Below are positions 656 through 1,443 of a DNA stretch of 1,744 nt, piece by piece (the stretch's first letter is position 1; every line of letters starts with the position of its first letter). The stretch comes from Escherichia coli (GTDB taxonomy: Bacteria > Pseudomonadota > Gammaproteobacteria > Enterobacterales > Enterobacteriaceae), in assembly GCF_003334255.1 (NCBI RefSeq), contig NZ_QOWU01000151.1. One strand, given 5' to 3'. The notes under the pieces are model-generated. The model saw only the letters and a list, made by a program, of their open reading frames with translations. It ran no database searches and was not told where the DNA came from. The position numbers were made by a program, and so were the translations under genes.

Positions 656-1120
656 ATGAGTGATAAGCTCCCTTCTGATTACGAAATTCTTTTTGACCTG
701 TGGTACAGCTACTGGCTTGAACACATGACAAGCCTTCTCCACCGTCGCGCTTCCTTGGTTCTGAGGATTAGCGCTTTCCTTGCGATTGTTGCCGCATTCA
801 TTTTTTGCGACAGCGCAACGTTTGTTTTCGCCAGTGTGGTGCTCTTTCTGGTGTGGCAGGTCATGGCTGCCTCTCTTTCTATCAGAGCTGAAAAGGCTGA
901 ATGGCAGGCGCTTAGCTATCAAAGACTGATTAGCCAGCGCCACGTGCTCACCCCGGAATGCATGATTGCGCGCCTCTCCTTTGTTGAGGAAAGTGACAGC
1001 CCCGTGATGGAGTGCATGATCAACCTTGCCTGGAATAAAGCCTGTGAGACGGTTGGTAGCTCTGCGCGCAATCATGTTTCGATCTCCGGTCGGTTACTCA
1101 GTCGCCTGTGCGGCTTTTGA
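656..1120 (+). CDS. hypothetical small membrane protein (154 aa): short N-terminal segment, two predicted transmembrane helices, ~80-aa C-terminal domain
   Basis: Open frame 329..1120, but the first ~110 codons are Arg/Pro-rich low complexity and overlap the intergenic repeats. The protein-like part begins at ATG 656 (MSDKLPSDYEILFDLWYSYW...), preceded by a G-rich SD-like GGGGTG at 644..649. Two hydrophobic stretches (SLVLRISAFLAIVAAFIFC and ATFVFASVVLFLVWQVMAASL) are separated by a short turn. TGA stop at 1118..1120. Alternative start at ATG 596 cannot be excluded. Confidence 0.65.
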   Translation: MSDKLPSDYEILFDLWYSYWLEHMTSLLHRRASLVLRISAFLAIVAAFIFCDSATFVFASVVLFLVWQVMAASLSIRAEKAEWQALSYQRLISQRHVLTPECMIARLSFVEESDSPVMECMINLAWNKACETVGSSARNHVSISGRLLSRLCGF

Positions 1121-1443
1121 TTTGTGAAGCAGCTGCGCGACGGTTTCGCCGGCTGCCCGGTTTTCCGGGAATGACACTGGCATGTTCAGTTTGAGCGCCA
1201 TTGCGTACTCAGCCCGTGCGCCAGCGGACTCTTCCCATCCATCCAGTAAGTAAATGGCATCGGCACACATGAGCATCGGAATACAAATACTCATGTACTG
1301 CTGCTGGCTTAATCCGTCAGGCAGTACGGCAGGATTAAGAACGATGTTTCCGGCGCACCGAAGTTTCAGGTCCTCCACGCAAAATGCCGTCCTGTTGTGT
1401 CTTTGCATCCGGTCATGGGACCGGCGATATAAATCACTGCCAT
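1094..1443 (-). pseudogene. DUF4406 / nucleoside 2-deoxyribosyltransferase-like protein gene interrupted by a frameshift (true pseudogene or sequencing error)
   Basis: Minus-strand ATG at 1443..1441 with a strong SD GGGAGG 6 nt upstream encodes MAVIYIAGPMTG..., the characteristic N-terminus of this family, but that frame stops at TGA (1368..1366) after 25 codons. The 104-codon ORF 1094..1408 in the -1 frame carries the rest of the family signature (NRTAF..., VLNPAVLPDG, YLLDGWEESAGARAEYAMALKLNMPV). Both halves are family-like, so the frameshift must lie between them, within about 1397..1407, which includes a TTT homopolymer at 1402..1404. Confidence 0.75.

Follow-up and report, generated by a model that had tools for sequence, protein, structure and literature searches.

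A single-base deletion splits a DUF4406 gene in the early region of a P2-like prophage of Escherichia coli

The window analyzed here, a stretch of 1,744 nucleotides of Escherichia coli DNA, carries on its minus strand a gene of the DUF4406 family that is divided between two reading frames close to its 5′ end. The initial annotation had proposed that a DUF4406/nucleoside 2-deoxyribosyltransferase-like gene is split here by a 1-nt deletion, and this proposal is supported both by alignment and by abutting matches to a family profile. We estimate at roughly nine in ten the probability that a heritable 1-nt deletion has made a pseudogene of an accessory early gene of a P2-like (P88/Xuanwuvirus-related) prophage, with a presumed loss of function. 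The case is one of ordinary gene decay, of a kind already known. Translation starting at the strong native site would yield only a 25-residue peptide, and the remaining 101 native codons would be translatable only from an internal ATG that lacks a Shine–Dalgarno (SD) sequence. The 104-aa product made from that ATG would most likely be unfolded or inactive, because it lacks β-strand 1, the Gly-rich loop, and Tyr5. The deletion appears to have arisen once, on a common intact allele, to have spread with the prophage, and to be gathering further lesions now.

The split gene and its place in the prophage

The window is 100% identical to positions 5347147–5348890 of the chromosome of E. coli DETEC-S792 (NZ_CP116067.1), where it belongs to the early region of a P2-like prophage that looks complete and is inserted beside dmsA. 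A second match to the DUF4406 gene was counted in the same chromosome. The early strand of the prophage corresponds to the minus strand of the window and begins with the genes for an integrase, a helix–turn–helix (HTH) repressor, and Cox, followed by DUF4761, DUF4754, a 3′–5′ exonuclease, a ParE-like open reading frame (ORF), a Dam methylase, and the DUF4406 gene. Beyond the latter are a convergent ORF on the other strand, a 73-aa “derepression”-like gene, and a 138-aa ORF, after which the prophage continues with the gpA replication endonuclease, SSB, portal, and terminase genes.

Two of these neighbors fall within the window. Upstream, in the same early operon, is the 3′ end of the Dam-type DNA adenine methylase gene (1472–1744, minus strand; RefSeq 9472–10416 in locus L001; PF02086). 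Downstream, the convergent ORF (656–1120, plus strand) encodes a conserved phage protein of phrog_6315 (PHROG E-value 1.6e-65), and its 3′ end and that of the DUF4406 gene share 27 nt; this ORF is annotated at 656–1120 in strain SCU-172 and at 473–1120 in the genome of the window. Deposited phages that match the window do so only over its left third (the isrK/C4/derepression part) and are P2-like phages of the P88/Xuanwuvirus type; no near-identical deposited phage was found for the DUF4406 segment.

The native start of the DUF4406 gene, ATG 1443–1441 on the minus strand, is preceded by the SD sequence GGAGG (1450–1454, minus strand), for which we calculated a duplex energy of −11.6 kcal/mol with the anti-SD; values of −9 kcal/mol or lower occur at only about 1.5% of the 68 ATGs of the window. 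The 5′ fragment opened by this start (1366–1443, minus strand), delimited by the ORF list, alignment to the intact allele, and the family hidden Markov model (HMM), comprises 15 native codons (MAVIYIAGPMTGCKD, 1443–1399) and then 10 out-of-frame codons before the stop TGA 1368–1366. It corresponds in the ORF list to the minus-strand ORF 1443–1366 of 25 aa, MAVIYIAGPMTGCKDTTGRHFAWRT*. The 3′ fragment is a 104-aa ORF beginning MQRHNRTAF (1094–1408, minus strand), which the ORF list places in the −1 frame relative to that of ATG 1443; its native reading spans 101 codons, from H16 (1399–1397) to E116, with the stop at 1096–1094. Its own initiator, ATG 1408, has no SD sequence: its anti-SD energy is −2.4 kcal/mol, compared with a mean of −3.0 kcal/mol over all ATGs of the window. 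The ORF list and the duplex energy thus bear out what had been described for both fragments, namely, a strong SD, a 25-codon ORF ending at 1368–1366, and the remainder of the gene in the −1 frame at 1408–1094.

The coordinates also locate the interruption. The codon of G12 ends at 1408 and that of N17 starts at 1396, leaving an 11-nt linker (1407–1397), as the initial annotation had noted, whereas homologues have 12 nt (4 codons). Nowhere in the window is there a single uninterrupted ORF that contains (I/V)YIAGPM(T/S)G, a four-residue linker, and NRxxF.

Family profile, intact parent allele, and predicted fold

To assess family membership with the two frames kept apart, we used a family HMM of 101 positions, which was built from 34 homologues with the window sequence excluded and was run on stop-to-stop segments in all six frames. 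It matches exactly two segments of the window, which correspond to abutting parts of the profile in different frames: profile positions 3–21 in the frame of ATG 1443 (21.9 bits, E-value 7.6e-6) and positions 13–100 in the frame of the 104-aa ORF (134.7 bits, E-value 5.5e-41). The Pfam DUF4406 model (PF14359) matches the intact allele over positions 2–90 of 91 (E-value 1.4e-32) and the 104-aa ORF over positions 13–90 of 91 only (E-value 3.1e-24). Since the DUF4406 match is divided between two frames, the locus is a member of the family in the form of a disrupted gene. The two profile families suggested at the outset fared differently: DUF4406 was recovered for both halves (the 104-aa ORF with Pfam and the 25-aa ORF with the family HMM built here), whereas DUF1937 (PF09152) gave only marginal partial matches (E-values 0.014–0.041), which do not place the protein in that family.

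The 33 full-length homologues that we aligned come from Escherichia, Salmonella, Citrobacter, Enterobacter, Klebsiella, Yersinia, Sodalis, Shewanella, and other genera. All 33 begin with (I/V)YIAGPM(T/S)G, and in each exactly four residues separate this motif from NRxxF, so that a 12-nt linker is indeed the intact state, as had been surmised. Residues Y5, I6, A7, G8, P9, M10, and G12 are conserved at 90% or more; N17, R18, and F21 are invariant, and S73, G75, A76, and E79, like Y5, show little or no variation among the aligned homologues. No split gene was found among the 33. A natural short isoform beginning at ATG 1408 was considered and rejected: no homologue in the alignment starts at the internal methionine or lacks the N-terminus, and ATG 1408 has no SD sequence.

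The nature of the lesion is clear from comparison with intact alleles. Relative to the SCU-172 allele, which encodes 116 aa and is annotated as DUF4406, the window differs by one missing C and 3 single-nucleotide polymorphisms (SNPs). At the junction of codons 15 and 16, the intact GAC|CAC has become GACAC (AAA GAC CAC AAC in SCU-172 versus AAA GA-CAC AAC in the window), leaving a single C (plus-strand G) at 1399 on the minus strand where intact alleles have CC (GG), as both the alignments and re-insertion of the C show. The 1-nt deletion postulated in the initial annotation is thus confirmed, but its suggested position in the TTT run at 1402–1404 is not, the AAA/TTT run being the same in intact and broken alleles; alignments to the intact alleles rule that site out.

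We repaired the gene by re-inserting one C into the window and looked up the 116-aa product by exact sequence. The repaired 351-nt gene is DNA-identical to 7 of the 10 fetched loci that encode the intact 116-aa protein P0149, and the window allele is therefore this common intact allele minus one base. P0149 itself was found on 254 contigs and in 665 blocks of the index. The gene is full length in all 26 of the other complete E. coli genomes that carry it.

The fold of the intact protein was modeled with AF2 (pLDDT 86, pTM 0.79). In the model, β-strand 1 (residues 3–7) leads into the Gly-rich loop, and the Rossmann-like α/β fold is that of the nucleoside 2-deoxyribosyltransferase-like superfamily. 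The best Foldseek matches in the PDB were nucleoside 2-deoxyribosyltransferases, MilB/BcmB, and DNPH1 (TM-scores 0.6–0.65, probability 1.0, E-values 8e-4 to 5e-2), and PHROG 355, named “nucleoside 2-deoxyribosyltransferase,” was matched with an E-value of 2.6e-38. Neither phmmer nor a profile search of the PDB returned a meaningful sequence relative of solved structure; NCBIfam and PADLOC searches with the DUF4406 protein and its two neighbors gave no match, and literature searches turned up no functional study of DUF4406 and nothing relevant on deoxyribosyltransferases in P2-like prophages.

MilB and BcmB are CMP N-glycosidases, and the active site of deoxyribosyltransferase-fold enzymes combines a Tyr on β-strand 1 with the Glu of an S/D-x-G-x-x-x-E motif. 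We take Y5 and S73-x-G75-A76-x-x-E79 of the intact protein to resemble this active-site Tyr and the nucleophilic Glu. β-Strand 1 and the YIAGPM(T/S)G loop (residues 3–12) may line the putative active site, and E79 of the S-x-G-x-x-x-E motif would be the counterpart of the catalytic glutamate, given the motif resemblance and the fold match. If the active site is read in this way, the frameshift leaves β-strand 1, Y5, and the Gly-rich loop in one frame and the remainder of the domain in another. Our best prediction for the intact protein is a small enzyme of the N-glycosidase/deoxyribosyltransferase fold, expressed from the phage early operon, and we take the copy in the window to be its inactive remnant. 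With the superfamily of nucleoside 2-deoxyribosyltransferases, DNPH1 (Rcl), and MilB/BcmB it shares the predicted fold and, by resemblance of the motifs, the Y-x-A-G-P of β-strand 1 and the C-terminal S-x-G-x-x-x-E; unlike those enzymes, which are about 130–160 aa long, it has 116 aa and shows no sequence-level similarity to solved structures.

Genes of the DUF4406 family occur in 443 deposited phage genomes, and their carriers include N15 (gp57), phiKO2 (gp58), D6, Rac-SA53, and many phages of Vibrio, Gordonia, Arthrobacter, and Mycobacterium. Like N15 gp57, phiKO2 gp58, and P0149, the repaired protein has all the invariant residues of the family, and it is 56%–61% identical to the proteins of D6 and N15. 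These genes lie, as does that of the window, in the accessory or early region of temperate phages; the window gene departs from them in that its frame is broken after codon 15, so that no single ORF holds the complete domain.

Spread of the broken allele and further lesions

The exact 104-aa product, whose opening MQRH is encoded in the shifted frame alone, was found on 399 contigs (448 index blocks). The identical deletion is present in 13 of 13 independent NCBI assemblies that we examined (ten and then three more), and four double-mutant assemblies described below also carry it. In all ten assemblies for which 10-kb flanks were compared, the prophage occupies the same site at dmsA. The dmsABC host flank in these ten falls into at least 5 haplotypes separated by 69–300 SNPs per 4.6 kb, and outside the gene the prophage is mosaic, with 27–411 differences in 15.6 kb; only 0–2 SNPs separate the ten over the 1.7 kb that surrounds the gene. 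A near-identical gene region amid diverse host flanks and mosaic prophages argues that the deletion is real, arose once, and has since traveled into several E. coli backgrounds by lysogenization and/or recombination. The initial annotation had considered a recent inactivation in a mobile element. The mobile element is indeed there, as the P2-like prophage next to dmsA, but the event does not appear especially recent: “recent” is only partly apt because the allele occupies at least 5 host backgrounds and mosaic prophages and has left a descendant with a double frameshift.

That descendant, P0019 (73 aa; listed with 15 contigs, 18 contigs read), has the same first deletion and has lost one further nucleotide from the invariant S73 codon: according to its alignment, the missing base is the T of TCC, which is intact in the window at 1228 (minus strand). 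Such a second frameshift is the expected path of a gene no longer under selection. In another variant, P0027, the deletion is joined to a C-terminus characteristic of a different allele, a sign of intragenic recombination. In some alleles that are intact in other respects, the start codon is CTG and not ATG, which suggests that constraint on this accessory gene may be weak.

In most respects the window gene resembles the ordinary frameshift pseudogenes of prophages, with a single-base indel, a shortened ORF from a fortuitous ATG, secondary lesions, and intact alleles that persist in parallel; only the breadth of its spread is unusual.

Decay, retained function, and practical meaning

Being very common and present across host backgrounds, the broken allele is evidently not deleterious to the phage. 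Its abundance and its passage between hosts would also be compatible with some remaining or changed function, or with loss being selected for; of the alternatives to plain decay we consider this the strongest, while still judging it unlikely. The 104-aa ORF might, for example, yield an active protein through re-initiation or coupled translation at ATG 1408, or the 25-aa peptide might complement it; alternatively, the intact protein might burden the lysogen or be sensed by a host defense, such that phages without it spread preferentially. What speaks for these scenarios is the abundance of the allele, with 399 contigs, and its spread over at least 5 host backgrounds in P2-like prophages that are complete and look transmissible. 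They also draw support from the 104-aa ORF, which retains the putatively catalytic stretch S-x-G-x-x-x-E, still matches DUF4406 with an E-value of 3e-24, and is annotated by RefSeq as a coding sequence (CDS). The 104-aa ORF is also perfectly conserved in most carriers, but the divergence and the time involved are too small for this to mean much.

Translation of that ORF would, however, depend on a start with an anti-SD energy of only −2.4 kcal/mol, and the ORF that begins at ATG 1443 ends 40 nt downstream of ATG 1408; with no SD sequence and the end of the upstream ORF lying 40 nt beyond the start, re-initiation would be inefficient at best. Any product would be devoid of β-strand 1, Y5, and the Gly-rich loop, all conserved at 90% or more, and one sub-lineage has gone on to destroy the 104-aa ORF by the second frameshift at S73. 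The CTG-start alleles are consistent with weak selection on the gene in general, and hitch-hiking on a successful prophage could by itself explain the abundance. Gene decay remains our preferred reading of the locus.

It is considerably less probable, and in our judgment very improbable, that the full-length protein is recovered through programmed −1 ribosomal frameshifting or through slippage during transcription. The arrangement has some of the appearance of recoding: the second part of the gene occupies the −1 frame, no stop interrupts that frame anywhere in the overlap, as the read-through of P0022 and P0030 shows, and a single-tRNA slip site, T TTT G, the only candidate in our scan, occurs at 1384–1381. 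In having overlapping ORFs with the downstream one in −1, the gene is like the programmed −1 genes dnaX, lambda G/GT, the P2 E/E′ tail chaperones, and IS1 insAB. Unlike them, it offers no X XXY YYZ heptamer within the 25-codon ORF (1443–1366), where the longest run is TTTT, and slippage on T TTT G would produce ...GCKDTTGRHF-CVEDL, in which the invariant N17 and R18 are replaced. None of the 33 homologues is split, an unshifted allele that is otherwise DNA-identical is common, and a descendant lineage has added a second frameshift. Because that unshifted allele is common, the frameshift is a derived mutation and not a conserved feature. The initial annotation had rated programmed frameshifting as much the less likely of its options, and in view of the missing slippery heptamer and the unsplit homologues, we find no support for it either.

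The homopolymer sequencing error that had also been entertained can be dismissed, and it is scarcely credible that a sequencing or assembly error in DETEC-S792 conceals an intact gene: single-base indels are typical of long-read assemblies and DETEC-S792 is the only one of the 27 complete E. coli genomes with the gene that has the deletion, but the frameshift-specific product is on 399 contigs, the identical deletion recurs in 13 assemblies from different projects and in the four double-mutant assemblies, the carriers span at least 5 host flank haplotypes, a derived allele has a second lesion atop the first, and the site is a CC dinucleotide with no homopolymer run.

The significance of the finding is mostly practical. 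RefSeq/PGAP annotates 1094–1408 as an ordinary CDS of 104 aa (WP_225394294.1, “DUF4406 domain-containing protein”) with no pseudogene flag, and for this reason the frameshift is invisible in public annotation. Hundreds of genomes hence carry an unflagged pseudogene whose product, WP_225394294.1, is listed as normal, and N-terminally truncated sequences of this kind can contaminate alignments of the family. For the phage, the case shows that the DUF4406 gene is dispensable, in a P2-like prophage whose movement among E. coli lineages continues. For the family, the broken and intact alleles form a natural knockout pair, one base apart, which could be used to find the function of DUF4406 proteins.

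A derepression-like gene and nearby small-RNA matches

A 73-aa open reading frame (ORF) on the minus strand (positions 51-272) was assigned to phrog_3688 (E 3e-41) and shows a weak match to Pfam PF25738 ("Derepression"). Phage P88 and Xuanwuvirus have a region annotated "derepression protein" to which it is ~87% identical at the nucleotide level. Searches against Rfam yielded full-length matches on the minus strand to the C4 antisense RNA (RF01695; positions 329-416; 80.4 bits against a gathering score of 45, E 1e-15) and to the Hfq-binding small RNA isrK (RF01394; positions 452-526; 67.2 bits against 50, E 9e-14), as well as a match below threshold to the c4-a1b1 target site (positions 487-539). 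The segment thus annotated looks like an antisense-RNA immunity or antirepressor module of the P1/P4/Gifsy type within a P2-like prophage. RefSeq lists neither the C4 nor the isrK RNA among its features here. All three RNA matches lie on the same strand as the 73-aa gene and immediately upstream of it.

The left part of the window is matched by ~1140 Escherichia coli records at 80-90% identity. Many related prophages carry ~485 additional bases in the region corresponding to window positions ~280-650, and their match to the window consists of two pieces. Furthermore, the SCU-172 prophage locus (L002) contains the 73-aa gene twice, at 7222-7443 and 8051-8272, with both copies encoding WP_000013462.1. 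The isrK/C4/derepression module appears to be duplicated or variable among prophages.

A convergent plus-strand ORF

The final 27 nt of the DUF4406 gene (positions 1443-1094, minus strand) are also covered by a convergent ORF on the opposite strand, whose 154-aa form (positions 656-1120) matches phrog_6315 at E 1.6e-65. In DETEC-S792, PGAP called a 215-aa form of this ORF (positions 473-1120), which crosses the isrK match in antisense and is probably an over-extension; annotated lengths in other genomes are 154 and 200 aa. The phrog_6315 protein contains long hydrophobic stretches (LRISAFLAIVAAFIF..FVFASVVLFLVWQVMAASL), which suggest a membrane protein.

The DUF4406 gene in other loci and phages

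Two places in the DETEC-S792 chromosome (NZ_CP116067.1) match the DUF4406 gene; the second match, which includes the first 86 nt of the gene, is presumably a copy in another P2-like prophage. In three loci encoding the "intact" 116-aa protein P0149 (L031, L036, and L037), CTG replaces the ATG start codon at position 1501 (window position 1443), and the preceding GGAGG is unchanged. In these alleles, either the start is lost or weakened, or translation initiates at the CTG or at a GTG two codons downstream.

A DNA methyltransferase gene directly adjoins the DUF4406 gene in three unrelated phage types, too few to establish an association: the P2-like prophage of DETEC-S792 (Dam; L001 9094-10416), phage N15, where the C5-cytosine methyltransferase gene gp58 overlaps the DUF4406 gene gp57 (L039 2495-3803), and Aeromonas phage 4_4512 (H158; Dam). 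In D6 and Rac-SA53, the DUF4406 genes are located instead in ea/nin-like accessory clusters.

The SSB-portal interval

Among prophages carrying the frameshifted DUF4406 allele, the SSB gene is called at either 86 or 105 aa (15341-15601 in loci L020 and L024 versus 15341-15658 in L019), and the ORFs between SSB and portal vary as well: their lengths are 178, 235, 242, or 282 aa, and an additional 167-aa ORF is present in only some of the loci. These differences suggest that the prophages have a variable cargo ("moron") site.
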